From positions 577,161 to 641,160 of the forward strand of contig OZ244981.1 in NCBI GenBank assembly GCA_965223085.1: DNA of 64,000 nucleotides, given 5' to 3'. Of the stretch, positions 1 through 59,700 are shown in pieces. Each line of letters begins with the position of its first letter. The first letter of the stretch is position 1. The stretch comes from Gammaproteobacteria bacterium (lineage in GTDB: Bacteria > Pseudomonadota > Gammaproteobacteria > Ga0077536). Position numbers and translations under genes: made by a program. The notes beneath the pieces are model-generated. The model saw nothing but the letters and a program-made list of their open reading frames with translations, ran no database searches and had not been told where the DNA came from.

Positions 1-297
1 TGCACGGCCTGTGCGGCCAGGGTGAATGCGGTCGAGCCGCTCGCGCAGTTATTATTGACATTGACGATCGGAATCCCCGTCATGCCGACGTGATACAAGG
101 CCGTCTGGCCGCTGCAGGAATCGCCATATACATAGCCCGCATAGGCGGCCTGGATATTCTCGTAGGCGATCCCGGCATCAGCCAACGCACTGCGCACCGC
201 TTTCGCGCCCATCTGATCGTAGGCATCGCTCTGCCCGGGCTTCTTAAAAGGCACCATGCCAACCCCGCCGATGATCACTTGATTCGATCCGTTCATA
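1..297 (-). CDS. thiolase-fold protein (SCP-x / lipid-transfer-type thiolase), N-terminal part; gene runs off the window start
   Basis: Minus-strand translation from the ATG at 297 reads MNGSNQVIIGGVGMVPFKKPGQSDAYDQMGAKAVRSALADAGI...YVYGDSCSGQTALYHVGMTGIPIVNVNNNCASGSTAF. The NNNCASGS active-site Cys region is typical of thiolase-fold enzymes. GAGGTG lies upstream of the ATG. Confidence 0.6.
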
Positions 298-7900: not shown

Positions 7901-7917
7901 AACGGCAGTAACAGGAG

Positions 7918-8319
7918 ACACCGTTACGGACGTATTAGTATTGGCAGAACGTTTTCTTCGTGCTCTCGAAAGTATGGATGAAGCAGGGCTACGTAGTTGC
8001 TATGGACCGCATAGCTTCGATTTGGCACGACTTTGATCAAGTAACACAAAGCGTTGATGAAAATATCGCGATGCTCGCGAGCTTGCACGAGCTCGTCGGC
8101 AGCATCAAGTTTCAAGGCCGCCGGCGGGAGGCGATTAAGGGGGGCTTCCTTGAAGTTTATACTCTACGGGGCAGCGTTGCGGGAAGCGACTTTGCTATAC
8201 CGGCATGTTTTCTTGCCGATGTCGAGAATAATCGCATCGTGAAAATTGAAGAATACGTCAATCCCCAAGCATTACCGGATAAACTGAGTCCGGAACAACA
8301 AGCCGCGTTTGTCGCTTAA
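7918..8319 (+). pseudogene. SnoaL/NTF2-like small protein, apparently frameshifted near 8016-8020
   Basis: Frame A reads ..TDVLVLAERFLRALESMDEAGLRSCYGPHSFD and then hits a stop. Frame B continues ..WHDFDQV..GRREAIKGGF..FLADVENNRIVKIEEYVNP, the C-terminal half of a SnoaL-like fold. A one-base indel in GATTTGG would join the two. Confidence 0.4.
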
Positions 8320-8642
8320 CCGGCTATTGCACGAGGACCGCAGTAGCAAGCAAGTGAGCGCTCCCACACTATCTGGCTTAGAGGTATCCGCCGTGCGTGC
8401 CTAAGCGGCAGCCGGTAAGCACCTCGCGCAAGTTCGATCACACCGGCAGACACTGCATAGGTTTTGCGTTGTTCATCGAAGTGCAACATACCTTCGGCAA
8501 CCAAGGTTTTTAGCAATTTAAAGCAACTGTTTACGTTGAGTTCGAGTTCAGCTGCGATGCCGCTCACACCCATCGGCTCACAGCTACTTAAATGGCGAAT
8601 AATACACAACGCGTTGCTTACCGAACGAATACTATTGGCCAT
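8316..8642 (-). pseudogene. IclR-family regulator, HTH domain only (truncated)
   Basis: MANSIRSVSNALCIIRHLSS..MGVSGIAAELELNVNSCFKLLKTLVAEGMLHFDEQRKTYAVSAGVIELARGA is an IclR N-terminal HTH. About 33 aa of non-IclR sequence follow and then a stop. No effector domain is present, and the position is occupied by a convergent gene. Confidence 0.5.
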
Positions 8643-8779
8643 CTTAGAAACGTCGTCAGTGCTTGTTCCGAATCTGGTTCTGTCATCATTCCAATAATGA
8701 AATGACTTTATCAATTTTTTGCTACGATGTAGCTTACGGTCGAGCAGCAGCTTCGACAGATAAAAATAGGAGGGCGAGT

Positions 8780-10027
8780 ATGTTTACGGCAACTGACGGA
8801 ATATTGATCCCAACGACTGTGACGGGATCTTGGCCACGACCCGCGTGGTTTACGCGCAGTCTTCAAGGGCGACGCTTATCCGACGTGATGACCGACATCG
8901 AGTACCGCGAGCAGTTTTTGGACGCCGTGGCGACCGTTATCAGCGATCAGGAGCAGGCTGGCCTAGACATTGTCTGCAACGGTGACTACCACCTCGATCC
9001 TAATCTCGGCGGCCTATCCTGGATCCTGTGGCCGATTGAACGCATGGCGGGCGTTGACGCGCAGGATACCTATCCGGCGGCGGAAGAATGGTCGTATCCA
9101 CCCGGCTCGGTGCTCAACGAGGTCATGGGGGGGTGGCGCTATCCGGCAGCAGTGGACAAAGTGCGCCGAGAAAGATCGTGGGAATTCGCCAAGCTGTGGC
9201 GAACGGCGCAAGCAAAAACAATGAAACCATTGAAATTCGGTACCGTGTCCGGGCAAATGACGGGGTCTTTTGTCGAGTTGCGCACGACTAAATATCCGCA
9301 GGACAAACGTGAGCTCATGTGGGATATGTGCGTCGCGATCAACGAGGAGTTGTGTGAACTCGCCACCGCGGGCTGCAAAGTGATTCAACTCGAAGACCCA
9401 CTCATACATCTCGTCAGTCCGACCAAACCCGACAAGGAGTACGTCGATTTCCTGATCGATTGTTTTAATCGTGAAGTAGAGGGCCTAGATGATGTTGAAA
9501 TCTGGATCCATACTTGCTGGGGCAATCCAAACATGCAAAGGGTGTTGGAAGACACATCGTATGCCCCGTCGTTCGAAGACTATATGGAACGCGTGAACGG
9601 GGATGTATGGACGGTCGAAATGAAGGAGCGCAACTGGGCGGATATCGAGTTATTTAAGGCGTATAAAGGCAAAAAATGGCCGAAGAAGATCGCCGTCGGC
9701 GTTATTAGTCACCGTTACCTGCAAGTTGAAACGCCGCAAGAAGTCGCTGCCGATATTCGTAACGCGCTGAAATACATTGATCCTGAGCAGTTGGTCCTTT
9801 CAACCGATTGTGGCTTCGGACGTCAAGGGTGTAATCGCATGATTGCTTTCCACAAATCGGTGTCCATGGTACAGGGTGCAAACATTGTTCGACAGGAACT
9901 CGGCGGCGAAGCAAGCATGGTCAGGGCCGCTGATCCGAACTTGCAAGTCGATAATATTTATCGCGAAACCCGTGATCGCGTGCTGATTACTGACGCCGGA
10001 GTCGGTGCTAGCCGTGGCGACGGATGA
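8780..10027 (+). CDS. MetE-like Zn-dependent methyltransferase (cobalamin-independent methionine synthase family, stand-alone catalytic barrel), paralog 1
   Basis: MFTATDGILIPTTVTGSWPRPAWF.., IQLEDPLI (Glu ligand), WIHTCWGN (His-x-Cys) and STDCGFGRQG (Cys) are the MetE C-terminal-domain Zn-site signatures. An AGGAGG RBS lies upstream. It is about 45% identical to the paralogs at 22507 and 48017. Confidence 0.8.
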   Translation: MFTATDGILIPTTVTGSWPRPAWFTRSLQGRRLSDVMTDIEYREQFLDAVATVISDQEQAGLDIVCNGDYHLDPNLGGLSWILWPIERMAGVDAQDTYPAAEEWSYPPGSVLNEVMGGWRYPAAVDKVRRERSWEFAKLWRTAQAKTMKPLKFGTVSGQMTGSFVELRTTKYPQDKRELMWDMCVAINEELCELATAGCKVIQLEDPLIHLVSPTKPDKEYVDFLIDCFNREVEGLDDVEIWIHTCWGNPNMQRVLEDTSYAPSFEDYMERVNGDVWTVEMKERNWADIELFKAYKGKKWPKKIAVGVISHRYLQVETPQEVAADIRNALKYIDPEQLVLSTDCGFGRQGCNRMIAFHKSVSMVQGANIVRQELGGEASMVRAADPNLQVDNIYRETRDRVLITDAGVGASRGDG

Positions 10028-10180
10028 CGGTTAACGGAAAGCCGTGCACTAATGTAATCACCTATCTCGAGCACGTGAATAAGGAGCCAGCAGTCTGTCG
10101 GTGATGTAAGCGCCGCAATAGAGCAGACGACTAACCGCAAGACGCGTTGGCCAAGCGAGCGCTATAGGGAGGAGGAATCG

Positions 10181-11395
10181 ATGCCAAACGCAAGCTCTGA
10201 TAGCGCCGTCTACATAGTCGGCACCGCTGATACGAAGCGTGCCGAGCTAGAATTTCTGCGCGAGCGTATCGCGGCTAGCGGCGTGACAACCCGGATCGTC
10301 GATGTTGGCATTCTTAGCGACGGACGCGACGTCGATTTTGGGCCGACCGCGGTTGCCGCTCACCATGCTCGAGGCGCTGCGATCCTAGATACCGATGATC
10401 GCGGTGGAGCGATTGCGGCCATGGGCGAAGCGCTCATCGGGTTTCTCACTTCGAGGCCTGATCTCGCAGGTGTGATCGGGATCGGCGGCTCGGGCGGTAC
10501 GGCAGCTATTACACCCGCGATGCAGGCACTCCCCATCGGCACACCGAAAGTCATGGTTTCTACCGTGGCGTCGGGTGATGTCACCGCATACGTTGGCCCT
10601 ACCGACATTTGCATGATCTACTCGATTACAGATCTCGCCGGACTGAACCGAATTTCCACGACAGTGCTCAACAACGCGGCGGCCGCGATCTCAGGCATGG
10701 TCCGTGCGCCGCGTGCTGCCATGGTGTCGCTGCCGCCGGCGGTAGGACTTTCGATGTTCGGCGTTACCACACCGCTTGTCATGACCCTCACAGAGCGATT
10801 AAAACCCGCGTTTGAACCTTTGGTATTTCACGCTACCGGTATCGGCGGTAGGTCGATGGAACGTTTGGCGTTAGAACGCGAAGTGATCGCCCTACTCGAT
10901 ATGACGACCACGGAAATCGCAGATTATTTAGTCGGCGGTGTAATGAGCGCGGGTCCGAGTCGCCTCGATGCCGTAATCGAGACCAAGCTACCCTACATCG
11001 GGTCGTGCGGCGCCTTAGACATGGTTAATTTTGGGGCCCGAGAAACGGTGCCGGAAAAATTCAACGATCGTCAATTCTACATTCACAATCCCTTCGTGAC
11101 CTTAATGCGTACGACGCGCGACGAAAACCGGCAAATCGGGGAATGGATCGGCAACAAGCTCAATTGTTGCGAGGGTCCGGTGCGTTTTTTAATCCCGAGC
11201 AAGGGCGTATCTGCGATCGACATCGAAGATGGACCCTTTCGTGATCCCCAAGCGGATGCAGCCCTGTTCGAGGCGTTGCAATCAACCATCACCGAAACTG
11301 CGAAACGCCAACTCGTGTCTATCGACGCTCATATCAACGATACCGTGTTTGCTGACGCGGTTGAGTCTTTGTTTAAGGAAGTGGTTGCCGTCTAG
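10181..11395 (+). CDS. UPF0261 / Tm-1-like ATP-binding domain protein (COG5441)
   Basis: 404 aa, [22 protein letters not shown]...[16 protein letters not shown]... The size and motifs are typical of the Tm-1-like N-terminal family, which is normally found next to a PEP-hydrolase-like partner, as here. Confidence 0.75.
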
Positions 11396-11406
11396 GAGAA
11401 CGCCAC

Positions 11407-12231
11407 ATGATTTCTCGTCAACAAGTCCTCAGCAAATTTAACACCATGATCGAACAAGGTATACCCATCATAGGTGGCGGTGCCGGCACAGGTTTATCGG
11501 CAAAATGCGAAGAAGCAGGGGGCATCGATCTGATTGTGATCTATAACTCCGGCCGCTATCGAATGGCTGGGCGCGGTTCACTCGCCGGTTTGCTGGCCTA
11601 CGGCAATGCGAACGAGATCGTCGTGGAGATGGCGCAGGAAGTCGTGCCCGTAGTCAAACACACTCCTGTGCTTGCCGGTGTTAACGGCACCGATCCGTTC
11701 ATTGATCACACGCGCTTCCTACAAAAGCTGCAAACTTTGGGTTTTGCGGGCGTGCAGAATTTTCCCACGGTCGGTTTAATCGACGGACAGTTTCGCCAAA
11801 ATCTGGAAGAGACAGGCATGGGGTATGCGCTCGAAGTTGACATGATCGGCGCGGCACACCGCCTCGATCTACTAACAACACCTTATGTCTTTGACGTCGA
11901 CGATGCCCGCGCTATGACGGCTGCCGGTGCAGATATCTTAGTCGCGCATATGGGTCTAACGACCGGCGGCGCGATCGGGGCTGATACGGCGCGTAGCTTG
12001 GATGATTGCGTTGGCAAAATCGACGCCATCGCGCAAGCGGCGAGAGCGGTACGCCCTGAGGTGATCATGCTGTGTCACGGCGGCCCTATTTCATCGCCCG
12101 AAGATGCGAAATTCATACTCCAGCACTGCCGCGAAATTAATGGCTTTTATGGTGCGAGCAGCATGGAACGTCTACCAACTGAAACAGCGATCACCGGGGT
12201 CACGCAAGCATTCAAAAACATTACCGTCTAG
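11407..12231 (+). CDS. phosphoenolpyruvate-hydrolase-like 'TIM-barrel signal transduction' protein (COG5564), partner of UPF0261
   Basis: 274 aa, ..[43 protein letters not shown].. Start is 12 nt after the Tm-1-like stop. The last 57 nt of the gene lie inside direct repeat 1. Confidence 0.75.
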
Positions 12232-12255
12232 GTCGGAGGTTCGTTCTAACCGAAC
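12175..12255. repeat. direct repeat 1 (about 81 bp), covering the 3' end plus 24 nt downstream of the PEP-hydrolase-like gene; left boundary of the island
   Basis: ccaactgaaacagCgatcaccggggtcAcgcaagcAttcaaaaacattaccgtctaggtcGgaggttcgttctaaccgaac matches 24786..24866 with 4 mismatches. It contains the stop codon and a small hairpin (gttcg-ttctaac-cgaac). Confidence 0.85.
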
Positions 12256-18159: not shown

Positions 18160-19262
18160 CTTATTGAGACTAACAAAATAAATGAACTATGTATGATTTC
18201 GATGATCGGATCTTTCAGATTGTACACTGAAGAGACCGATGGCGAAATCGGAGAAACAGAAAGCGAAAGAGAAACGTCGTCTGCGAGCCGGCCGTTTATT
18301 GCTCAAGGGCGTGCTGCAAGTCGAGGTCGCTGAACGCATCGGGGTTGCCAAGTCGAGCGTCAGCGGCTGGGCCAAACGATTGTCGGAAGGCGGACTGGAT
18401 GCGCTGCGTAGCGATGCGATATTGGGGCGTCCATCGGGCATGGACGACGAGAGGAACTCGTTCGCGCCCTGAAGCAAGGGGCAATGGCGCACGGGTTTCC
18501 GACAGAGCTATGGACGTTACCGCGGGTGCGACGCCTGATCGAGTCAATGTTTGGCTTGCAGTATTCGGAGCCCCATGTGTGGCGGATCCTGCGCAGCCTG
18601 GGTTTCAGTCCGCAATGACCGAGCAAGCGGGCGCTGGAACGTGACGAGGATGCGATCCGAAATGGGAAGCAGAAACGATGGCCAGCGTTAAAAAAAACGC
18701 CGTAAAACAGGGGCGAACTATCGTTTTCGTGGATGAGTCCGGTTTGAGCGAGCGGCCGACGCGCACGAGGACATGGGCGCCGAAGGGCCCCACGCCGGTG
18801 CTGCAATATCACTTCAATTGGCATCAATTGTCGGTCATGGCGGGTATTACCTGGCGCCGATTTTACTTTCGTCTGTTTCCCGGCAGCGTCAAAGCGCCCG
18901 AGGTGATGAAATTTCTCAAAGCGCTGTACCGGCAAATGCGCCGCCCGTTGTTGAACATCTGGGATGGTCTGCCCGCCCACCGCTCATGCCTCGTGCGCGA
19001 ATACATCGAATCGAAGAACGGTGCGATTCAGTTGGAACGCTTGCCCGCTTACGCACCAGAGCTCAATCCGGTGGAATATATCTGGGCTTATGCGAAACAA
19101 CATGAAGTCGCCCATCTGTGTCCGGATGATTTCGCAGAGTTGACCGACGTTGCTCGAAGCCGCCTTCGTTCGATGCAACGCCAACCTGCCTTGGTTGAGG
19201 CATTTTGGAAACAGGCAGAACTCTCCTTATGATTGTTCATCATTTATGTAAGTCTCAATAAG
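18160..19262 (+). mobile_element. IS630-family element (about 1.1 kb) with terminal inverted repeats cttattgagac / gtctcaataag; the transposase is inactivated
   Basis: The transposase is spread over three frames: an HTH part (18239..18472, MAKSEKQKAKEKRRLRAGRLLLKGVLQVEVAERIGV..), a middle part with an in-frame TGA (..LGFSPQ*PSKRALERDE..), and the DDE_3 part (18678..19232, ..TIVFVDESGLSER..). An A8 run sits at the junction at 18688-18695. Confidence 0.7.
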
Positions 19263-19360
19263 GTGTGAAATGAGACGGCGTCAAGCCATTCCCTGTTACA
19301 GCTTACTCGCAAATTCCCCACCACGAGCAAGGTCGTTTGACGACCCGCATCATTGCATCG

Positions 19361-20054
19361 CTACGTCGGTTGGCGAGAGCACGCGACGCTTACAGCTCGC
19401 GCAACGACGATGGGAATGATTCGCGCGCGATACCAGGCCGAGGCATGCTTGTCAGTGGCAGGATCGATCAGGGCCGCGCTGCCCGCGAGTACTTCTCGGC
19501 AATGTTCCGGAGTAGGATCTTCACCCACTTCGGACGCGTCCATTTCAACCACAACGGGCTTGGTAGTCGCGCGACCAATCGCGACCCGAACAGACTCGTC
19601 ACTGTAGACCGCCGCCGCCGTGGCAATAGCCGGAGCGATCGCAAACGTCGACCTGGGCGTCCAGTGCGAGCAAGGTGAACGCCAGATCGCCGCGATAGAC
19701 GACGTTGCCGCCCACCGTGGCAAGGTTGCGCGAGGCTGGAGCACCCACCGACCTGGCCGCAACTCGCAGCGGCTCGAGTGCTGTGATCCGTTCAAATTCG
19801 GCGATCCGCAACATAGCCCCGATACGAACGCCGCCGTCATCGATACTTACCGCGTCGAGTCCGGCGCAAGCTAGATCGGCCACATCGGTGTGCGCTGAGG
19901 CGCCTTGGAACAGGGTCGGCGTCGTCACCGTCCCACCGCCGATTAATAGGACTCTCGGGGTCGGCTCGCTGGTAAGCGCCCAGGCTTCGGCGCTGCTGGT
20001 GGGAAAATGGTAGCTAATGCTCATCAACGGTGCTCGGTGTTCTCGCGGTAACAA
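19361..20054 (-). pseudogene. CoxM-like FAD-binding subunit of a xanthine-dehydrogenase-family enzyme, frameshifted; paralog of 49320..50117
   Basis: N-terminal frame: MSISYHFPTSSAEAWALTSEPTPRVLLIGGGTVTTPTLFQGASAHTDVADL... C-terminal frame: ..VRVAIGRATTKPVVVEMDASEVGEDPTPEHCREVLAGSAALIDPATDKHASAWYRARIIPIVVARAV. Both align to the intact CoxM at 49320 but sit in different frames. Confidence 0.7.
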
Positions 20055-20213: not shown

Positions 20214-22463
20214 TTAAAAGCGATACGATAGCGTAACGCCATAACGACGCTCCGTCGCCTGGTAGCCAACATCAGGCAGGTTTGTCGTCTGAGCATTGAA
20301 CCAATTTGACCAATATTGGGTGTTACCTAGGTTCTTCGCCCAAACCGTAAGCTGCCAGTTTTCGTTCTCAACAGCGACATTGGCATTGATTAGATGTACG
20401 TCTTCTTCAATGTCGGTATTAAATACGTCCCAATAATTGTCGCCGCGTACGGCATAATCGATATGGAGCGATGCTTCCCATCCGGTATTAGTGATCGGCC
20501 ACCTGTATTCGCCCGTTACACTGGCCGACCAATGACTGAAATTTCCAAGCTTATTTCCGATGAAGAAGTTATCGCTTATGGGGGTGGCTAGTCCGGATGC
20601 GGCGCTGATAGCCGCGGCATTGCCGCCAACGTTGATCGGGAACAGTGCAGCGTTCTCAAACGCCTCAATCTCAGAATCCATCCAACCGAGCGCGGCGCCG
20701 ACCGTAAGTCGATCGCTTACAGCCCAAGTTCCGTCGAGCTCAATACCCCAGACGCTGGACTCGGGGATATTGTGGAGGATCTGCGCCGCCTGCACCGAGT
20801 CGAACACGAAATCCTGTTTGTCATTTATGTCTTCGTAAAACACGGCTGCGTTAAATAACATCGCGCCGCCAGCGTATCGTCCCTTATGACCAAGCTCGTA
20901 ACTCCACAAAGTCTCCTCCTTGAAGGTTGTCGGGAAGGCAGATCTAGGTGTGTTGAAACCGCCGCTACGAAATCCTCGGGAGGCAGTTAAGTAAAACATG
21001 TGATCGCCGGTGGCGTTATAGCTGATGGAAGCTTTTGGCTGAATATCGTCAAATATCTTGTCGAAAAAGTTTGTCGTCGGATCGGGATCATCGTAGTCAA
21101 ACTGATCACGATCTTCGCGGTCATAACGCAAACCGAGGCTCACCGTCCACTTGTCGGTAATGTCGAAGTCGAGGTTGCCAAACACGGCGATCGCGTCAAT
21201 ATTACGTTTCAACCCAACTGGGGAGATGATAAAAGTCTCATCGGCCAGATCACCGTCCCCGTCGAAGTCGATGAAAACCGGCAGCGTGTCACGCCGATCG
21301 ATTGAGATGTAATACAGACCAACCATCCATCGCAAACGCTCTTCCGTGTTCGAGATCAGTTTAGCTTCTTCCGACCAAGACTTAGCGGTGTAGGTTTGCT
21401 CGTTACCAATAAATTCACCGGCAACAAAATCAAGATCACCAGGGCCGTCACCGCCCACGCCTTCGCCGCGCCGACCATAGCGCTCATAGGTATTGTTGTA
21501 GGCTGTTACAGACGAGAGTTTCGCCCAACCAAAATCATACTCCAGTTTCAAGGATGTGTCCCAAATAGTACCGAACGCAACAGATATAGGATCCGAAGTC
21601 GGACGCCCGAACCCATTATTACTATTTCGAATCCGGCCCGTAAATGGTACGCCGATCGGCCGAGTTATTACGTAGTTGTAATTTCCGGCCTCGAGGTCGT
21701 CGACGCTGAAACGAAAGTCGGCATTGAAGTTTTCAGTTGGGAACCATGATAGCCTGGCGCGCAATGTTTTATTCTCTTGAAAGTCGGCTTTTTTATTAAC
21801 AGTCGCATTGTTAATCGTCCCGTCATCATCGTGATAAGTGCCAGCTAAACGATACGATAGGGTATCTTTTATCACTGGACCCGCAACTGAAAACCTGAGA
21901 TCCAATGCGTCTGCGTTCCCGTATCCAACGGTGAATTTTCCTTGATGTTCGTTCGTGGGTGCTTTGGTTGTGATATTGATAGCGCCGGCGATCGCATTGC
22001 GACCATACAGCGAGCCCTGCGGTCCTTTGAGTATCTCAATTTGTTCGATATCGAATAACTCCTGGCGGACCTGGCTGGCATTACTAATCTGCACGCCATC
22101 GACGACTATGGAGATCGCCGGGTCCGTATTCCTTGTTTGTGTAATACCGCGCACGGAGATAAAGGTGGACGTTGGGCTTAGATCGTTTCTCGAGCCGATA
22201 TTGGGATAAAGCATGCCGATATCCTTAACCGTCGTGATACCGGCGCGTTCGATCTGATCTGATGTGATCACTACGATGCTGTCTGGAACATCGGCCAAGG
22301 ACTCGCTCCGCTTACGCGCTGTAACTACGATCTCCTCTAGTGCCCCTTGCGCTGCCGCGACACCTATGAGTTGAAACCCCGGCGGGTATTGCGTTGATAG
22401 TACAAGCGCCATCGCAATTGTTGGCACAACATATACTAGTCGATTTACTGATTTACGATTCAT
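20214..22463 (-). CDS. TonB-dependent outer-membrane receptor
   Basis: 749 aa with a signal peptide, an N-terminal plug (..EEIVVTARKRSESLADVPDSIVVITSDQIERAGI..), and a beta-barrel ending in the canonical ..RRYGVTLSYRF. Confidence 0.85.
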   Translation of the reverse strand: MNRKSVNRLVYVVPTIAMALVLSTQYPPGFQLIGVAAAQGALEEIVVTARKRSESLADVPDSIVVITSDQIERAGITTVKDIGMLYPNIGSRNDLSPTSTFISVRGITQTRNTDPAISIVVDGVQISNASQVRQELFDIEQIEILKGPQGSLYGRNAIAGAINITTKAPTNEHQGKFTVGYGNADALDLRFSVAGPVIKDTLSYRLAGTYHDDDGTINNATVNKKADFQENKTLRARLSWFPTENFNADFRFSVDDLEAGNYNYVITRPIGVPFTGRIRNSNNGFGRPTSDPISVAFGTIWDTSLKLEYDFGWAKLSSVTAYNNTYERYGRRGEGVGGDGPGDLDFVAGEFIGNEQTYTAKSWSEEAKLISNTEERLRWMVGLYYISIDRRDTLPVFIDFDGDGDLADETFIISPVGLKRNIDAIAVFGNLDFDITDKWTVSLGLRYDREDRDQFDYDDPDPTTNFFDKIFDDIQPKASISYNATGDHMFYLTASRGFRSGGFNTPRSAFPTTFKEETLWSYELGHKGRYAGGAMLFNAAVFYEDINDKQDFVFDSVQAAQILHNIPESSVWGIELDGTWAVSDRLTVGAALGWMDSEIEAFENAALFPINVGGNAAAISAASGLATPISDNFFIGNKLGNFSHWSASVTGEYRWPITNTGWEASLHIDYAVRGDNYWDVFNTDIEEDVHLINANVAVENENWQLTVWAKNLGNTQYWSNWFNAQTTNLPDVGYQATERRYGVTLSYRF

Positions 22464-22506: not shown

Positions 22507-23679
22507 TCAAATTAAGGCGAACCTTGGATCGGCCGCGAGGCTGGGTATTTCCTCTAACCCCAACTCTTTGCGAACGATATTGACCCCTAGTCGCAGCGAC
22601 ACCATTTTGAAAAACGCGTGCATTCGACTCATGCCTTGTCGACCGAAGCCGCAATCAGAGCTGATGATCAGTCGCTCTGGACCTATAAGTGTTGCCGCAC
22701 GACGGACTAGGTTTGCAACCTGTTCAGGGCGTTCGATCTCGAGGCTACGGTGATGAATGGCGCCGATCGCCACCTTCTTGTCTTTACCAATCGCCTTTGC
22801 AATTGCCTCGAGGTTTTCTCCCTCATCACTGGCCGTCTCGAATGTAATGACGTCGACATCCAACGCATTTAAATATGACAAACCCGGTGTGTAGTCCTGC
22901 ACCACTTCAACGCGTTGGGCGAGCGGATTGCCCCAACAGGTGTGCGCCCAAATCTCGGTCTTGTCCCGCAAACCGTCAACTTCACGGTTAAATACCTCTA
23001 CATATTCGGCTGCGCGTCTCGCGCCATCGTCCATTGACGCAACGTACTGTATGAGTGGCTCCTCTAATTGAATAACCGGTGCGCCAGCATCGGCGAGCCG
23101 GCGGTATTCCTTATTCATGGAATCTGCGATTGCGTTCGTGACTTCCTGCGGTTGTTTGTAATAACGATTAACGACCACTGCATCCAATAGCTGTGCGCAG
23201 CAACTACCTAGTTTTACCGGTTGAGCGCTCATGCTCTGAGCGATCTTCCAAAGCTCCGTGTATTCGAGATCACCCGGCGTGATCTCACCGGTTATCGAGG
23301 CGGGCAGCCGACATTCTTGAACGCGTTGCAAGATATCGCCGCGTTGTTGTTCGCGCGGTGAGGACCACCCGGGAACCTGCAAGGCGGGTTTTTCCATGCC
23401 ACCCATACGCTCGAACATGTACGCAAACCAAGCGCGGCCACCAACATCCGCGTCGAAACGCGAGTCGCCGTCGACGAAGATTTCGATTCCGGCGATCGAC
23501 TGATCGCAGAAGTGCGCTGCTAGTGTGTCGCAATACTGTTCGCGAAAACGTAGATCTGTCATGGCCAAAGAGAAGGGGCGGCCATTGAGATTCTCTGTAA
23601 ACCAACTGGGACGTGGCAGCGATCCGGTAAGCGTGGTCGCTAACGGTCGATCTTTGGTCGCTTTGAACATGAAAACCAA
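22507..23679 (-). CDS. MetE-like Zn-dependent methyltransferase, paralog 2 (about 90% identical to 48017..49189)
   Basis: MVFMFKATKDRPLATTLTGSLPRPSWF..IQLEEPLIQ..WAHTCWGNP..SSDCGFGRQG. A 390-aa intact ORF. Confidence 0.8.
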   Translation of the reverse strand: MVFMFKATKDRPLATTLTGSLPRPSWFTENLNGRPFSLAMTDLRFREQYCDTLAAHFCDQSIAGIEIFVDGDSRFDADVGGRAWFAYMFERMGGMEKPALQVPGWSSPREQQRGDILQRVQECRLPASITGEITPGDLEYTELWKIAQSMSAQPVKLGSCCAQLLDAVVVNRYYKQPQEVTNAIADSMNKEYRRLADAGAPVIQLEEPLIQYVASMDDGARRAAEYVEVFNREVDGLRDKTEIWAHTCWGNPLAQRVEVVQDYTPGLSYLNALDVDVITFETASDEGENLEAIAKAIGKDKKVAIGAIHHRSLEIERPEQVANLVRRAATLIGPERLIISSDCGFGRQGMSRMHAFFKMVSLRLGVNIVRKELGLEEIPSLAADPRFALI

Positions 23680-24031
23680 CCTGGTTCGGCAGTGCCCTAG
23701 AGGCCAGCCGGGTCATTGGCGATTTGAATAGATTTAACGATATAGCGCGATTCCACAATGTTGGGCCATATGGTGGCTTATCCCGTAATCTGATTTGGTG
23801 CTACGAACTACGATGACACGAAATACCCTTGGCAGACTGAAGTTTGCGAGTTAGCTTAAGCTCATGCGCGCGACTTCGTGCGGCCGTGGCAGCGTCGTGA
23901 GACGGACGGGTGATTGTTAGACTGTCAGATAAATCAGCAGAGTACGCAACATTTTCACTGTTGTTGAATTCGAACACTCCACAGTACATGGTGGTTCTAG
24001 CCGACGATAAACGACACTTGCGGAAACCCTT

Positions 24032-24100
24032 ATGAAGACAGCGATCAAGAGCGCGACCATCGTGCCTATGGATGAAAACATCGGCGATCTCGTCGAGCTC
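24032..24100 (+). pseudogene. 5' end (about 23 codons) of an amidohydrolase paralog, with its conserved leader, truncated by an IS256 fragment
   Basis: MKTAIKSATIVPMDENIGDLVE parallels MKTVIKSASIVSMDEGIGDLASGDILIEG of the intact amidohydrolase at 55261. The upstream 46-nt leader is 41/46 identical to 55148..55193. Confidence 0.55.
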
Positions 24101-24447
24101 ATCTCCGTGCCGCACAGCGCTTCGACAACTCTCTTCACCCGACGGGTCGACACCCCTTGAACGTACATCTCTGCTATAGCCAACAGTAACGCGCGTTCCG
24201 AGCGTAGACCACGCTCCAGACTTTGCGGGTAAAATTCGCCGTCGCGGCTCTGGGGCACCATCAGTGCCAACGTACTGAGCCGCGTCTTTATCGATTTGTC
24301 TTTGTAACCATTGGCATAGCCCGTACGCGCCGCCACCATCGCCGAGTTCAGCAAAACCGTCACCGCTTCTGCCAGTCCATCAAAGCCATGCGTCCTTAGC
24401 AGTTCCACTGCATCGACAATCGTTTTATTCTCACCATGCTGAGCCAT
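24100..24447 (-). pseudogene. N-terminal roughly 115 aa of an IS256-family (mutator-type) transposase, truncated
   Basis: MAQHGENKTIVDAVELLRTHGFDGLAEAVTVLLNSAMVAARTGYANGYKDKSIKTRLSTLALMVPQSRDGEFYPQSLERGLRSERALLLAIAEMYVQGVSTRRVKRVVEALCG is IS256-like. It ends within amidohydrolase-derived sequence. Confidence 0.6.
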
Positions 24448-24785
24448 TTCGTGTTTCCTCTTTGTCCGCAATTCGCCAATCGCTTTCAAAAGGATAACCG
24501 GATGGCTCGGCGCTTCCGAACCGACAACAATTTACAGAAGAAACGTTACACCACCCAAAATCAAAAGGCATGAGAGATACAGAATTATCCACTCTTCTTG
24601 GGGAGGCATACTTCCATGAGGGAAAATACCAAAACGCTATTGCAGCTCTCACAGCCGGTATCAATCTCTTTGTCGAAGATTCGCGATTTAATATGTCGGG
24701 CGAAAGTTTTGGACCTCCGCGAGCTCCGGCCATTTACCACGGCGTTAGATTGCATATCCGATTTGGGTGGCTGACCGGGAGTCAG

Positions 24786-24866
24786 CCAACTGAAACAGTG
24801 ATCACCGGGGTCGCGCAAGCGTTCAAAAACATTACCGTCTAGGTCAGAGGTTCGTTCTAACCGAAC
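24786..24866. repeat. direct repeat 2 (partial copy of the PEP-hydrolase-like gene 3' end); right boundary of the island
   Basis: 77/81 identical to 12175..12255. Only the last 16 codons upstream ([17 protein letters not shown]) resemble the gene, so this is the partial duplicate. Confidence 0.85.
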
Positions 24867-44049: not shown

Positions 44050-44112
44050 GCGCCGCGCCGAGGAATACTCGACCGCACCACCACGTCGCAGTGATACCCT
44101 CGGCTTTAAGGG
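44050..44112. repeat. 62-bp IS110-transposase-derived repeat, copy 1 (copy 2 at 59530..59592)
   Basis: ccgcgccgaggaatactcgaccgcaccaccacgtcgcagtgataccctcggc(c)tttaagggcg is near-identical at both loci. At 59530 it is embedded in an IS110-family tnp pseudogene. Confidence 0.7.
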
Positions 44113-46869: not shown

Positions 46870-47551
46870 TTCTCAAGACGCAAACGCCTGCGAACGAAAA
46901 TACCGATAATTCTTCGCCGAAATAAGGTGACGGCCAAGATTGAATAAATTATGTACCGCTGCGTGAACCGTCAAGAAACGCTGGCACTGCTTTGCCGATT
47001 TGAATCGATGCATCACCCGCTCTCTAACTCGTGTCGACTGATGCGATAGTTCGGCGCGATTATTGGCGTATTACGATGTGTCGTGGGTCGTCTGTGGCAT
47101 TAGTTCCCGATGAGCGACGCCATAGCTTTTCAACTTGTCCGTTACGATCGTTTTCGGCTCCTGCCGATGCGTTTTCAATAAACGCTTGAAAAATCGTTTG
47201 GCTGTCTTGGCGTCTCGTCGACGCTGAATAAACACGTCGATGAACTCGCTATCCTGATCGACAGCTCGCCACAAATAATGTTGCACACCACCGATCTTAA
47301 CGAACACTTCGTCCAGGTAAAAAGTATCGCCGTAGCCTCGGTGATTGCGTTTCAATCGTCACGCATACCCCGACCCAAATTTAATGCACCATAACCGGAT
47401 CGATTCATAGCTCACGACAATGCCTCGTTCTGCGAGTATATCTTCAACGTCTCGATGACTGAGATTGAACCGAAAGTAGGTCCACACCGCATATTGAATT
47501 ATTTCTGCCGGAAAACTGCGCCGTGTGTACAGCGGTCTAGGATGTACTCAT
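46870..47551 (-). pseudogene. IS6-family (IS6100-like) transposase with in-frame TAG, TGA and TAA codons and one frameshift
   Basis: MSTS*TAVHTAQ / (frameshift) FPAEIIQYAVWTYFRFNLSHRDVEDILAERGIVVSYESIRLWCIKFGSGYA*RLKRNHRGYGDTFYLDEVFVKIGGVQHYLWRAVDQDSEF...TIVTDKLKSYGVAHRELMPQTTHDTS*YANNRAELSHQSTRVRERVMHRFKSAKQCQRFLTVHAAVHNLFNLGRH.. Confidence 0.7.
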
Positions 47552-48016
47552 CGAATCATTACCGTTCAACGCTACTTAAGTTGCCAATACCAACTCGACT
47601 ACGCGATCATCGTGCTCGAAGGCCCGGCTGCGCTGGCGGCTATCGATGAGAACGGCGAAGAGACCTTTCGGTTCGAAACCGTGAGGTTGGTCCGCACGAA
47701 TCTATCATTGAAGACGGCGAGGTCGTGTCGCCCTCAATTGGTTTGGGTGCACCCGCTGCGCAGGCAGCAAACAATGGCGGCGATGCGTTCCGCCACGAAA
47801 TCTTAATTGAGTATAAGAAGCACGTTTAAGCGCCATGAATCCCACCTCAAGCCTGCGCCAATCTATTGTGGTCAATCTCGATGGGGGTTTCCCAACGCCA
47901 AATCAGATTACGGGATAAGCCACCATATGGCGCAACATTGCCCGAGTGCGCCTTATCGTTAAATCTACTCAGCCCCTAAACAACCCGGCTGGCCTGAGGG
48001 GCACAACCGGACCAGG

Positions 48017-55140: not shown

Positions 55141-55260
55141 GCTAGGGATTGTTAGACTGTCGGATAAGTCAGTAGAGCACGTAACATTTTCACCGCAGTT
55201 TAATTCGCACACTGTACGGTGAGGGAAAGTTCTCGCTCAACACCAGCGCCGGAAACCCGC

Positions 55261-56586
55261 ATGAAAACAGTGATTAAAAGCGCAAGCATCGTATCTATGG
55301 ACGAGGGTATCGGTGATCTCGCCTCCGGGGATATTTTGATCGAGGGGGAGCGCATCGCCGAAATCGGTGCGGATCTGGGCGTCATCGCCGCCGATGTCGT
55401 GATCGATGGTACGGACATGATCGCGATGCCCGGATTCGTCAACGGACATCTCCACTTGTGGCAGACCGCACTTCGTGGCATCGCTGGGGACTGGAGCCTA
55501 GGCCGGTATTTTCATACCTTGATCGAGGATGCGGTGCCGAATTACCGGCCGACCGATGTCATGATTGGCGATTTAGCGGGCGCACTTGATCAACTGAATT
55601 CTGGGGTCACCACACTCGTGGACTGGTGTCATATCGCTAATTCTCCAGAATATGCTGACGCCGCGGTAGACGGCCTCCTTGCATCGGGAATTCGCGCGGT
55701 GTTCTGCTACGGCGCGCCGATGACAATCCTACTTAACCCAGAAGCTGATCACCCCACGGACGTGCGTCGCATGCGCAAAGAACGATTGGCTTCTCGCGAC
55801 GCGTTGGTGACGATGGGACTTGCGCTACGTGGACCCGATTTTGCGCCGGGCACGGAAGAGACCGACATCCGCCTGGCTCGCGAACTCGATGTCCCGGCTA
55901 CTTTTCATATCGCCTGCGGAAAGTTTGGCCCGCGACCAGAATCTGTGGTTGCGCTCGCGCAAGCAGAGCTACTAGGCCCCGACATCAATCTCGTGCATGC
56001 CAACTTTTTGACCGACAATGAATTTCGTGCGGCGGCGAACTGCGGCGCGTCGATTGCGATTACGCCAGAGGTCGAGATGCAGATGGGGCTTGGGCTACCA
56101 CCCACCAATCCCGCGCGCGATCATCAGGTTAGGATCACACTCGGTACAGATATCGTAACCGACGTAAGTGCCGATATGTTTTCGCAAATGCGATTCCTGC
56201 TGCAGACAGAGCGTGCCTTACGTAACGATAAGCTTTTGCAACAAGGCGAAATGCCGGAGCAAATTGAATTCACCATACGCGATGTGCTGACTATGGCAAC
56301 GATTGAAGGCGCACGCGCATTCAATTTAGCGGATGAGATAGGCTCATTGACACCGGGGAAATTTGCCGATATTACGCTGTTACGCAAGAGTGATATCAAC
56401 ATGGCCTGCGTCAGGGATCCCGTTGCCGCAATCGTGCTTCACGCCAATCCCGCGAATGTCGACACAGTACTCGTAGCAGGTGTGCTGCGAAAAAGAAATG
56501 GGCAGCTTACCCACGCTGATTACGACAAAACGATGCACGAGCTACAAACATCGTCCGATTATCTCCATGCCGCCATGGTTTCATGA
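55261..56586 (+). CDS. amidohydrolase-1 superfamily metal-dependent hydrolase (chlorohydrolase / aminohydrolase-like)
   Basis: MKTVIKSASIVSMDEGIGDLASGDILIEGERIAEIG...GFVNGHLHLWQTALRG (HxH metal site)...HIAC..HANFL.. matches the guanine-deaminase/AtzA-B-like subgroup. Confidence 0.8.
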   Translation: MKTVIKSASIVSMDEGIGDLASGDILIEGERIAEIGADLGVIAADVVIDGTDMIAMPGFVNGHLHLWQTALRGIAGDWSLGRYFHTLIEDAVPNYRPTDVMIGDLAGALDQLNSGVTTLVDWCHIANSPEYADAAVDGLLASGIRAVFCYGAPMTILLNPEADHPTDVRRMRKERLASRDALVTMGLALRGPDFAPGTEETDIRLARELDVPATFHIACGKFGPRPESVVALAQAELLGPDINLVHANFLTDNEFRAAANCGASIAITPEVEMQMGLGLPPTNPARDHQVRITLGTDIVTDVSADMFSQMRFLLQTERALRNDKLLQQGEMPEQIEFTIRDVLTMATIEGARAFNLADEIGSLTPGKFADITLLRKSDINMACVRDPVAAIVLHANPANVDTVLVAGVLRKRNGQLTHADYDKTMHELQTSSDYLHAAMVS

Positions 56587-56657: not shown

Positions 56658-57557
56658 ATGCTGCCAGTCGAAATTGTTGATGCGCACCACCACATCTGGC
56701 GCCAGAGGGATTTGCCATGGTTACAAGGAAAGATGCAGCCGCGCATTTTCGGACCCTACGAACCGATCATGCGCGATTATGGCGTGGAGGAATACATCCG
56801 TGATGCCGAGGAGTCTGGTGTGGTAGCGTCGATTTACGTACAGACGAATTGGCCGACCACGCAAGCCGTTGACGAGGTCGCATGGGTGGAATCGTGCGCA
56901 GCAGCGCATGGCAAACCGACGGCGATCGTCGCTTATTGTGATCTCGTGGGGAGTGCCGTCGAAGAAACGCTGGAACGTCAAGCCCTCGCCTCGAGCCGTA
57001 TGCGCGGGATCCGCATGCAATTGCACTGGCATAAAAACCTAATGTACCGATTCGCTGAGCGGCCCGATCTGTGCTGCGACGATCGCGTTCGCCACAGTTT
57101 GGAAAAGGTCTGTAAGCGCGGTTGGCTATTTGAACTACAAGTGTTCCCAGATCAGATGAACGATGCCGCACAGCTGGTCGCGGACTTACCTGATTTAAAC
57201 TTCGTGTTGGTACACGCCGGAATGCCCGAAACCGACACCGGCTCTGCCTTCACTAAATGGCGCGCCGCGATCGAAACGCTCGCAAACCACCAAAACTGCT
57301 ACACGAAACTGTCTGGTCAGGGCACCTTCTTACATCGTGTCGATGATAGTTTTATCGGCAATGTGGTTCGCGCGTGCTTAGATGTGTTCGGTGCTGAACG
57401 TTGCATGTTCGGCTCCAATTTTCCCATCGAGAAAATTTGGTCCGATTTCAGCGGGCTCATGCGCGGTTTTGATACGGCCTTGGCGGGGCTACCGGATGAC
57501 GTTATGCGAAAGCTGTTTTTCGAAAACGCGAATCGCGTTTATAAGCTCGGCCTCTAA
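56658..57557 (+). CDS. amidohydrolase-2 (PF04909-type TIM-barrel metal-dependent hydrolase/decarboxylase/lactonase family)
   Basis: MLPVEIVDAHHHIWRQRDLPWL.. (HxH)..VLVHAGMP..FGSNFP.. 299 aa. Confidence 0.75.
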   Translation: MLPVEIVDAHHHIWRQRDLPWLQGKMQPRIFGPYEPIMRDYGVEEYIRDAEESGVVASIYVQTNWPTTQAVDEVAWVESCAAAHGKPTAIVAYCDLVGSAVEETLERQALASSRMRGIRMQLHWHKNLMYRFAERPDLCCDDRVRHSLEKVCKRGWLFELQVFPDQMNDAAQLVADLPDLNFVLVHAGMPETDTGSAFTKWRAAIETLANHQNCYTKLSGQGTFLHRVDDSFIGNVVRACLDVFGAERCMFGSNFPIEKIWSDFSGLMRGFDTALAGLPDDVMRKLFFENANRVYKLGL

Positions 57558-58426
57558 GTACTACGCCTGCCGCGGTGCGGGCAGCGTTCCGTATACTTTC
57601 CATCCGGTTTTGCGACCACTCTGTAAGCGCTGGGTGCAACCCCCGTGTGGTTGCGGAAAAAGCGTGAGAAATTCCCCGGCTCAGTAAACCCGAGTTCAAC
57701 CGCGAGGTCATTTAGCGATACATCCGACCCCAATAGTCGATCGATCGCCGCCTCCACACGTAGCGTGTTCCAGTAGAGATTGGGTGTCACTTTCATGTAT
57801 TTCCGAAACAACGCGAAAAAATGCGGTCGCGAGATTCCGGCATCACGAGCGACCTCGTTCAAATTTGGTCGATCGTTTAGATGTGACCGCATGTAAGCGA
57901 TCGCTCGCTTGAGTCGAAAATCGACGAACTCGCCGGTGGGGAAAACCGGTGTCTGTTGGACCGAACGCGCCCCGGCTTTTTCCAGAACGCCATGTAGGAA
58001 TCGGGCGACTTGCTTGTCTAAATCCAGCTGCTCGTCGGGAAGTGACAATAACTGGGCGGAGAATTCCTGATACAAGGCTCGCAAGCCGTCATCAATTTCT
58101 ATCGAGTTCGCAGTGAAATTCGGATCGAAGCCAAGCCGAAGGCATTCGTGGGCCAGCCATGGCATCTCGAGATAGAACAGCAAAAACGTGACTGGGTCAT
58201 TGCTATCAAGGCGGCTAAACTCATGCGGCTCGAAGGAATTGACTAGTGCACAATGATCCTGATCCAACGGAATGGTATTGTCGCTAACGCGCATCTTGGT
58301 CCGCGCCCCAGCAAACCAGAAGATAAGATGCCCCTGAGGATGGGCGTGCTCAACAAGCGATGAGTTGGCGCGTAACAACGCGACCCGCCCGCATTCACCC
58401 CAGTTGACTCGCAAAATCTCAGACAA
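57554..58426 (-). CDS. AraC/XylS-family transcriptional regulator, convergent with the amidohydrolase-2 gene
   Basis: N-terminal cupin-like domain plus C-terminal HTH (..LNEVARDAGISRPHFFALFRKYMKVTPNLYWNTLRVEAAIDRLL..LAVELGFTEPGNFSRFFRNHTGVAPSAYR). Confidence 0.8.
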   Translation of the reverse strand: MSEILRVNWGECGRVALLRANSSLVEHAHPQGHLIFWFAGARTKMRVSDNTIPLDQDHCALVNSFEPHEFSRLDSNDPVTFLLFYLEMPWLAHECLRLGFDPNFTANSIEIDDGLRALYQEFSAQLLSLPDEQLDLDKQVARFLHGVLEKAGARSVQQTPVFPTGEFVDFRLKRAIAYMRSHLNDRPNLNEVARDAGISRPHFFALFRKYMKVTPNLYWNTLRVEAAIDRLLGSDVSLNDLAVELGFTEPGNFSRFFRNHTGVAPSAYRVVAKPDGKYTERCPHRGRRST

Positions 58427-59303: not shown

Positions 59304-59700
59304 CTACCGGGCCGTCGCGGCCTTATAATGAAGACCATTGCGGCGTAACAACGACCCGATGTGTCGGCGTAGCGAACCTTGCAGCTGTATGAGTTGCTGC
59401 CTCGACCTCAACAGATCGCGATCTTGTTCGACTTGCGCATCGGGCTCTATCACGACCGTCAACAAATCATTCGCATAAAACTCGGCCAGCTCTGTCGCAT
59501 CGAGTCGATCCGTCTTCACCGATTTCCCACCGCGCCGAGGAATACTCGACCGCACCACCACGTCGCAGTGATACCCTCGGCCTTTAAGGGCGGTCGACTC
59601 TCAAAATCCAGTACCTCACCGGTGCGCTTTTCCAGCGCTGACCCGTGGTAGCGCACGTCATCGACATCAATTCCAACAGAAATTACATTCTGTTCCATAG
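59304..59700 (-). pseudogene. IS110-family transposase, frameshifted N-terminal portion
   Basis: MEQNVISVGIDVDDV.. (DEDD N-terminus) then, in another frame, ..GKSVKTDRLDATELAEFYANDLLTVVIEPDAQVEQDRDLLRSRQQLIQLQGSLRRHIGSLLRRNG.. Contains the 62-bp repeat (59530..59592). Confidence 0.55.

Follow-up and report, generated by a model that had tools for sequence, protein, structure and literature searches.

The 34-nt sequence that precedes two MetE-like paralogs in the 64,000-nt stretch of DNA analyzed here (the window) is, judging by its conservation, a genuine cis-regulatory element under selection, and we consider it likely (with a probability of about 0.7) that it forms the core of an operator of the AraC/XylS type, joined to a promoter that depends on an activator. 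The element would most likely be of a known and ordinary kind, and its regulator an uncharacterized one. Its conserved core was an asymmetric, two-part box of 17 bp, TCAGACT-N3-GGATAAG (the consensus of 16 sites). A candidate operator sequence is now in hand for an uncharacterized AraC-subfamily regulator, and four promoters, namely those of the two MetE-like paralogs, of an amidohydrolase operon, and of one defunct amidohydrolase copy, are tied into one proposed regulon.

As written, the 34-mer GCCATATGGTGGCTTATCCCGTAATCTGATTTGG was present exactly twice in the window, at 23765-23798 (+) and 47898-47931 (-), which upheld the perfect repetition described in an earlier reading of this DNA made from its letters (hereafter the sequence-only reading). 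No further copies were found in the window when up to three mismatches were allowed, with 0 expected by chance. The two copies were inverted relative to each other and 24 kb apart, and both formed the distal edge of the leader of a Meth_synt_2 (MetE-like) gene. Each gene together with its leader made up one arm of a 1.3-kb inverted repeat (22509-23807 and 47889-49187) that was 81% identical. The likely start codons, ATG 23670 and GTG 48026, coincided when the paralogs were aligned, agreed with homolog N-termini, and placed the 34-mer 95-128 nt upstream of the gene, or 86-119 nt if TTG 23679 is the start, rather than at the 65-100 nt given previously. Coordinates of these and the other features discussed here are collected in Table 1, where c1 and c2 denote the promoters of MetE-like paralogs 1 and 2, and a1 and a2 the related sites upstream of two amidohydrolase paralogs.

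Table 1. Features of the two gene clusters and their leaders. Coordinates are those of the window; leader positions are counted from the T of TCAGATT (position 1).
Feature	Position	Strand	Basis and remarks
34-mer copy 1, gene sense strand	23765..23798	-	Exact match; part of the 42/43-identical block at leader -4..38
34-mer copy 2	47898..47931	+	Exact match
c1/c2 leader	-4..38		42/43 identical: the 34-mer, one mismatch, 8 more identical bases
c1/c2 leader	39-50		42% identical, neutral-like
c1/c2 leader, block B	52-65		14/14 identical, TATCGTTAAATCTA
c1/c2 leader	66-80		44% identical, neutral-like
c1/c2 leader, block C	81-93		13/13 identical, ACCCGGCTGGCCT
c1/c2 leader	94-123		73% identical, reaches the start codon
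Box 1 of promoter c1, TCAGATTACGGGATAAG, predicted strong half-site	23777..23793	-	22.7 bits; 13/14 to TCAGACT-N3-GGATAAG
Box 1 of promoter c2, TCAGATTACGGGATAAG	47903..47919	+	Match to box matrix and consensus
Box 2 of c1, CCATATGGCCCAACATT, putative degenerate proximal half-site	23757..23773	-	Offset 20 from box 1; 6/14 to TYAGAYT-N3-GGATAAG
Box 2 of c2, CCATATGGCGCAACATT, putative degenerate proximal half-site	47923..47939	+	Same evidence as for c1
Block B copy 1, putative -10 region	23729..23742	-	14/14 identical between neutral-like flanks; TTAAAT at 23732-23737
Block B copy 2, putative -10 region	47954..47967	+	14/14 identical; TTAAAT at 47959-47964
Block C copy 1, presumed 5′ UTR	23701..23713	-	ACCCGGCTGGCCT, 13/13 identical
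Block C copy 2	47983..47995	+	13/13 identical
Site a1, TTAGACTGTCAGATAAA...ACATT	23917..23953	+	Divergent from c1; 115 nt before ATG 24032 of an amidohydrolase remnant
Site a2, TTAGACTGTCGGATAAG...ACATT	55152..55188	+	109 nt upstream of amidohydrolase ATG 55261; putative internal promoter of cluster 2
MetE-like (Meth_synt_2) paralog 1, 387 aa	22507..23670	-	Pfam; identical to P0001; first gene of decayed cluster 1
MetE-like paralog 2, 387 aa	48026..49189	+	Pfam; first gene of intact cluster 2
Amidohydro_1 (TRZ/ATZ-like)	55261..56586	+	Putatively under site a2; followed by Amidohydro_2 at 56658-57557
Cupin-type AraC/XylS-family regulator, proposed cognate protein	57554..58426	-	Pfam AraC_binding and HTH_18; convergent, at the end of cluster 2

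The case for selection depends on how far the paralogs have diverged where nothing holds them together. They had been described as 90% identical, and shared 88% of their residues (341/388) and 81% of their DNA. Identity at codon positions 1, 2, and 3 was 92%, 95%, and 58%, respectively, and only 79 of 167 fourfold degenerate sites (47%) were identical, so that neutral sites are saturated. We therefore took the neutral rate at fourfold sites, rather than the overall identity of 81%, as the null for run length. At this rate, the probability of a run of at least 34 identical positions in the leader was ~5e-10. Against the overall 81%, the 34-nt run was unremarkable (P ~0.015), and an exact run of 33 nt between the paralogs was also present within the coding region. 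Since 42 of 43 positions in this part of the leader were identical although neutral sites were saturated, we regard the 34-mer as being under selection. Identity was far from uniform, with 58% at third positions, 47% at fourfold sites, and 30-40%, that is, no detectable similarity, upstream of the 34-mer in c1 versus c2, which ruled out a recent duplication that had not yet diverged and agrees with the earlier argument for selection on a cis element. The patchy similarity that had been reported upstream of the 34-mer was absent there; the patchiness instead lay on the gene side, where conserved blocks alternated with neutral ones.

With neutral sites saturated, the abrupt upstream loss of similarity marks the end of constraint, and the boundary need not be a duplication breakpoint. 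This bears on the idea that a mobile or recombining module ends at the element, which would then be a terminal repeat or a target of site-specific recombination. The c1/c2 homology does begin abruptly at the element, the inverted arrangement of the copies would suit such a module, and in the organism carrying the orthologous site (organism L, below) sequence contexts diverged 3-10 nt upstream of the box, at a recent rearrangement breakpoint (L001/L002). However, we found no recombinase gene between or beside the copies and no partner repeat at the other cluster ends, there being two copies only, both of which lay gene-ward of the boundary, while the neighboring IS pieces were fragments of unrelated families. 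Moreover, the a-type sites shared homology that ran ~43 nt further upstream, and in the other loci examined the box was located in ordinary intergenic regions beside the regulator. We give this explanation very little credence.

Gene-ward of the 34-mer, conserved and neutral-like blocks alternated up to the start codon (Table 1), and the 128-nt leader as a whole was above neutral identity (72% outside the 34-mer). The second motif that had been noted, TAGATTTAACGATA, was confirmed in both copies, at the coordinates of block B, but lay 22 nt closer to the gene and not further upstream. Block C was partly kept in organism L; it falls outside the operator model presented below and could act at the RNA level. 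Together with the conservation of the leader as a whole, this unaccounted-for block is compatible with a structured 5′-UTR RNA (a riboswitch, an attenuator, or an sRNA target) acting on the MetE-like genes once transcription has begun; a 5′-UTR RNA had been raised as an alternative in the sequence-only reading. The segments AGATT...GATAAG and CTTATC...AATCT can indeed pair in c1 and c2, and one weak terminator-like hairpin overlapped the copy-2 start. The pairing of AGATT with AATCT was, however, missing in the ortholog from organism L, Rfam 15 gave no match at gathering score anywhere in the window, scans of the leaders relaxed to E ≤ 10 yielded nothing relevant, and folding energies did not stand out from those of shuffled sequences (z = +0.93 and -0.57). 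The covariation term from RNAalifold was just -0.21 kcal/mol, from three sequences (c1, c2, and L) and hence at low power. Furthermore, the box also occurred in antisense orientation upstream of regulator genes, at 6 of the 8 ortholog loci considered below, with box-to-start distances of 80-140 nt, and two sub-motifs around an uninformative center are typical of protein-DNA contacts. Control through a leader RNA thus appears quite improbable.

We return to the operator as the preferred reading, for which the orthologous site in organism L was informative. The MetE-like protein P0003, encoded on metagenomic contigs (GC 68% versus 56% here), was the only moderately close homolog, at 75% identity. 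Its operon comprised MetE-like, CoxM, CoxS, split CoxL, Amidohydro_1, and Amidohydro_2 genes along with a convergent AraC-family regulator. The leader of this operon retained TCAGATT..CGGA.AAG.C.C.ATA.G.C.C.ACATT and was identical to c1 at 27 of 37 positions. Although CCATATGG is a true 8-bp palindrome, as stated in the sequence-only reading, the symmetric-dimer operator proposed on that basis did not survive comparison. The palindrome was replaced by CCGATACG in the L leader and by unrelated sequence (GTAGAGCA or GCAGAGTA) in the a sites; it was absent from every related site, its dyad symmetry was not conserved, and what was conserved was asymmetric. The palindrome of a single sequence was a poor guide here: once related sites were compared, the asymmetric box beside it emerged as the functional core. 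Beyond organism L, the element was absent from 80 reference-genome loci of MetE-like homologs (≤63% identity), and the plasmid collection contained no match to it. A search of metagenomes with a degenerate 37-nt motif returned two chance-level matches, in coding sequence of unrelated AT-rich contigs, and did not recover the L loci.

Within the box, positions A3, A5, G12, and A13 were invariant, positions 8-10 carried 0.09-0.58 bits, and the centers of the two sub-motifs were 10 bp apart, approximately one helical turn. It is thus an asymmetric unit of 15-17 bp with two sub-motifs and an uninformative center, as AraC/XylS-type sites are. Four boxes were present in the window, one ahead of each MetE-like gene and one ahead of each of two amidohydrolase paralogs, 109-123 nt upstream of the start codons of genes that belong to one catabolic cluster. 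The a sites were independently recognizable in a leave-out test, in which a matrix built solely from the c and L sites scored a2 at 21.8 bits and a1 at 21.3 bits, compared with a mean of 12.1 (sd 2.2) and a maximum of 17.5 bits in 100 shuffled windows. Their raw ungapped identity to the 34-mer region (24/37) was borderline, being reached by 1 of 40 shuffles.

The box was associated with one type of regulator. The convergent AraC-family protein of organism L was an ortholog of the window's cupin-type regulator (61% identity) and occupied the same cluster-end position (L088-L090). The subfamily appeared to be small: of 5.8 billion proteins searched, 18 passed E < 1e-20. Eight further ortholog loci, in which the regulator was 41-48% identical by BLASTP (38-45% in the alignment), all adjoined split-CoxL XDH-type clusters. 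We scanned these loci with a matrix of the 17-nt box derived from window and L sites only, at a threshold of ≥14 bits, and obtained nine hits in 123 kb versus 0.72 expected (Poisson P = 7e-8); the control set, for which the 80 MetE-like homolog loci were reused, yielded three hits in 517 kb. All nine hits were intergenic and flanked the regulator or adjacent catabolic genes, and composition-matched shuffles of single loci agreed with the result. Recognizable boxes were also present in loci that fell below the threshold (L093, 11/14; L096, 12/14; L097, 12/14 and 11/14). When the consensus was used instead, 19 sites were found ≤400 nt from regulator genes versus 0.15 expected, a comparison that is partly circular because the consensus had been refined on some of these sites. 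The AraC-family regulator lies in one cluster with genes that it would control, and the box tracked its orthologs; the earlier proposal to assay the nearby AraC regulators for binding was apt. Both recognition helices were invariant across 10 regulator orthologs, which fits a conserved DNA target. Against named NCBIfam models, every score of the regulator was far below cut-off, the best score to AraC being 50.6 versus 208 bits. No box was found upstream of the window's own AraC gene, unlike at the majority of ortholog loci noted above.

The layout of the related promoters provided a framework for that of the window. In loci L097 and L098, the box was repeated at a spacing of 21 bp (offset 21, 11-13 of 14 positions matching), and the -10-like TACGAT stood 19-20 nt further on. 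Five one-box promoters had TAnnnT at positions 38-44. In the window-type promoters (c, a, L088, and L094b), no hexamer was common to all at positions 38-44, where c1 had TGGAAT (at 39) and L094b had TTTAAT (at 38). Their best -10-like hexamers were instead at 57-60, compared with TACGAT at 58-59 in the two-box loci. In all promoter classes, -10-like hexamers were located 19-22 nt after the proximal site, or its putative equivalent, a spacing compatible with a proximal half-site at or over the -35. A sigma-70 consensus promoter was not detected in either leader region of the window, as expected for an activator-dependent promoter.

The absence of a sigma-70-like promoter also speaks for a site that serves a different protein, be it another transcription factor, such as the AraC protein encoded at 1927-2949 or a regulator whose gene lies outside the window, or an alternative sigma factor for which GGAyAAG and ACATT would be the -35 and -10 elements. 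In line with this, the spacing of GGAyAAG and ACATT did not vary among the c, a, L088, and L094b sites, the window does contain this second AraC gene, and TonB-dependent receptors, a class often controlled by ECF sigma factors, were present in cluster 1 and related clusters. Yet ACATT was missing from the one-box promoters L091, L092, L095, L093, and L096, all of which kept the 17-nt box, and genes for sigma or anti-sigma factors were not found in the window or in related loci. The N-terminal domain of the protein encoded at 1927-2949 is of another type (Arabinose_bd), and the gene for this protein was not conserved beside the cluster in the L loci. The box tracked one AraC subfamily through eight further loci from other organisms. 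A different cognate protein is therefore unlikely, if less so than the other alternatives weighed here.

Two further readings of the leaders were discarded. A sigma-54 promoter seen by eye, TGGCGC-N5-TGC, had a GG-to-GC spacing one base short and was absent in c1 and L. An 11-codon uORF (MAQHC...) common to c1 and c2, a potential leader peptide, was absent in L and the a sites, lay inside the operator, and appeared coincidental.

Under the operator reading, the 34-mer would consist of a CCAAA flank (5 nt), box 1, and, beyond a linker of 3 nt, the initial 9 nt of a putative degenerate box 2. One monomer of the regulator encoded at 57554-58426 would contact box 1 via its two helix-turn-helix motifs, and the next 20 nt (CCATATGGCsCAACATT), directly adjoining the -35, would offer the other monomer a weaker second half-site. 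After box 2, a 12-nt unconstrained stretch (the variable positions 39-50) would act as the -35/-10 spacer, and block B would supply the -10 region. The inducer-bound dimer would then fill both half-sites and recruit RNA polymerase, so that four units would be co-activated: the MetE-like genes under c1 and c2 with their downstream genes, the a2 amidohydrolase operon, and, formerly, a1. Such an arrangement of box 1, box 2, spacer, and -10 region would account for the alternating blocks of the leaders. We infer the binding of the regulator, activation (as opposed to repression), the transcription start, and the role of box 2 from the sequence layout. Box 2 in particular is assigned by analogy with L097 and L098; it contains the non-conserved palindrome plus the conserved ACATT, and the internal direct repeat of the window element is not significant (27 matches at offset 20 versus 26 at offset 17).

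The identity of the c1 and c2 elements extended to positions at which members of the motif family differ. We calibrated the expected divergence on the operator itself, with c and L differing at 10 of 37 positions at a protein divergence of 25%, as compared with 12% for c1/c2. Over 37 nt, c1 and c2 had one difference versus ~4.9 expected, which is mildly surprising (P = 0.046). This extra identity could arise from both promoters serving one regulator, since cluster 1 has none of its own and both would answer to that of cluster 2. Perfect identity could also have come about if the two paralogous loci, in a region rich in IS elements and rearrangements, recently swapped promoters or underwent gene conversion over a short tract, in which case the identity would reflect no function of the element. 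Several features of the genomic setting would favor this: IS fragments adjoin both copies (IS256-like at 24091-24336 and IS6/IS240-like at 47071-47355), cluster 1 is a mosaic of rearranged fragments, and in organism L the L001/L002 breakpoint lies just upstream of the box. On the other hand, fourfold sites over the initial 170 nt of the coding regions were 48% identical, that is, there was no adjacent tract, and homology that could anchor such a patch was lacking upstream. A deviation as mild as that above hardly calls for a conversion tract, which we regard as unnecessary and do not favor. The element was in any case kept in other organisms and at other promoters, and so would be functional regardless. 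We consider it improbable that the identity came about in this way.

The proposed operator resembles known systems in part. AraC of Escherichia coli is a dimer whose subunits combine a cupin ligand-binding domain with a double-HTH domain and which acts at araI1-araI2 of pBAD. Strong and weak direct-repeat half-sites, with the weak, proximal one by the -35, are what we propose for the window as well, and the sites at regulator genes in many ortholog loci are reminiscent of araC autoregulatory or looping sites. However, the half-site has another sequence, a distal looping site could not be found in the window, and the regulator gene closes the cluster in convergent orientation instead of diverging from its target promoter. 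The marbox of MarA, SoxS, and Rob is asymmetric and ~20 bp long, accommodates two HTH motifs in successive major grooves, and functions in either orientation; MarA and SoxS are monomers that lack a ligand-binding domain. The box discussed here is likewise asymmetric with an uninformative center and occurs in either orientation to the promoter. In contrast to these proteins, the window regulator has a cupin domain and the tandem sites of L097 and L098 imply a dimer, and the consensus sequences are unrelated.

Sites of the AraC/XylS type are composed of 15-bp units, TGCA-N6-GGNTA, in which each sub-motif is contacted by one HTH, and usually comprise two direct repeats at -35 to -49 and -55 to -69 (PMC6205950). 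Those of XylS at Pm (TOL plasmid of Pseudomonas putida) and of CphR at PcphA2A1 (Rhodococcus) are, like the box, asymmetric, 15-17 bp long, and have sub-motifs 6-7 nt apart (PMC6205950). Against TGCA-N6-GGNTA, the box reads TCAG-N6-GGATA, so that the A sub-motif differs (TCAGACT, not TGCA). The likeness extends to the direct repeats of L097 and L098, with a period of 20-21 bp, while in the window the second repeat is degenerate and falls short of statistical support. It also extends to the location of the regulator in a catabolic cluster and to target promoters without a good sigma-70 consensus. The window regulator is nevertheless not an ortholog of either XylS or CphR, its NCBIfam scores being far below cut-off.

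With regard to function, no cluster protein reached an NCBIfam equivalog cut-off, and we thus refer to the pathway as uncharacterized. We suggest tentatively, at somewhat less than even odds, that the TCAGACT-N3-GGATAAG box and the small AraC subfamily constitute an undescribed regulon of an uncharacterized catabolic pathway, the substrate probably being an N-heterocyclic or methylated compound, with a split-CoxL molybdenum hydroxylase and a MetE-like or LarA-like first enzyme. The same tentative proposal includes a possibly portable promoter-operator cassette with recurrent rearrangements at its distal edge, as in the c1 mosaic and at the L001/L002 breakpoint. Box and regulator together would provide a handle on this pathway, the box could be used for finding the rest of the regulon, and the regulator/promoter pair could report on the inducer.

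In cluster 2, the MetE-like gene was followed by CoxM, CoxS, split CoxL, CoxD, and CoxE. Cluster 1 was an IS-riddled partial copy of cluster 2, with a truncated amidohydrolase and a frameshifted CoxM-like gene that was cut by a DDE_3 element. The amidohydrolase remnant downstream of a1 was interrupted after ~20 codons by the IS256-like fragment (Transposase_mut). Intact in cluster 1 were the MetE-like gene and the TonB-dependent receptor that follows it (20214-22463).

Six of the eight loci from other organisms that encode orthologs of the window's AraC regulator (L091-L096; 43-48% identical) carry the regulator gene immediately upstream of a LarA-like (Lar_N) gene. The next gene encodes a CMD-domain protein in L093, L094, and L095, while L091 also has LarB/LarC-like genes for nickel-pincer cofactor synthesis. 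The LarA-like enzyme in these clusters occupies the position of the window's MetE-like enzyme. At six of the eight ortholog loci (listed in the table), a box (the 17-bp TCAGACT-N3-GGATAAG motif, a proposed AraC-type half-site) precedes the AraC start codon by 109-146 nt and is oriented antisense, an arrangement suggestive of autoregulation or looping. No antisense box was found upstream of the AraC gene in the window or in the relative with the orthologous operon; in both, the regulator gene is convergent and lies at the cluster end.

In this relative, two contigs (L001 and L002) carry an identical MetE-like protein, P0003, and are presumably from strains of one organism. Contig comparison showed that the downstream 7.3 kb were 99.99% identical, whereas the upstream sequences were unrelated, as also seen for L088 versus L090. 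One upstream context held DUF5131/helicase genes and the other GntR-M19-TBDR-MFS, and the point of divergence between L001 and L002 was just 3-10 nt upstream of box 1.

Within the window, decay is ongoing in cluster 1, with the MetE-like gene still intact. In the 24032-24336 region, an amidohydrolase paralog is truncated about 20 codons in, and the cut (~24092) coincides exactly with the start of an opposite-strand IS256-family (Transposase_mut) fragment. Its box-bearing promoter, site a1, retains approximately 32 nt of a CoxE 3′ end (repeat 23874-23985 / 55109-55220), and the cluster 1 CoxM-like gene (18678-20054 region) is divided between two frames.

Upstream of the two MetE-like paralogs, both leaders shared an identical 13-nt block, ACCCGGCTGGCCT (23701-23713 and 47983-47995), about 30 nt ahead of the start codons and partly retained in the ortholog as CCGGGCTGGCGG. 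This block is unaccounted for by the operator model and may be a 5′-UTR element or a second-operator element. Both leaders also had an 11-codon ORF (MAQHCGIALYR / MAQHCPSAPYR) with its ATG within CCATATGG, for which the first two nucleotide differences between copies were synonymous; it had no obvious ribosome-binding site and was not found in the relative or at the two a sites.

Coordinates of features in the window and in related loci
Feature	Position	Comparison
FAD_binding_5 part, cluster 1 CoxM-like gene	19599-20054	
CO_deh_flav_C part, cluster 1 CoxM-like gene	19361-19840	
DDE_3 IS element interrupting cluster 1 after CoxM-like gene	18678-19232	
11-codon leader ORF	23735-23770 (-); 47926-47961 (+)	
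IS6/IS240 fragment, mobile-element-rich region	47071-47355	
Breakpoint	L001:5850-5861 vs L002:5850-5861	L001/L002
Antisense box	L091:9875; L092:9872; L093:9636; L094:1087; L095:118; L098:7855	

A third, longer Meth_synt_2 paralog (8663-10027, 454 aa) has as neighbours a UPF0261 / PEP-hydrolase-like pair and, at 5453-7900, a gene resembling dimethylglycine dehydrogenase; the 5453-12231 region thus has the appearance of a methyl-group or one-carbon module in its own right. Two more short direct repeats, 12170-12255 / 24781-24866 (93% identical) and 44053-44112 / 59530-59589 (95% identical), were in a region rich in mobile-element genes (IS21-type rve/IstB, a Mu-like transposase, and a TraC fragment) and may be IS ends.
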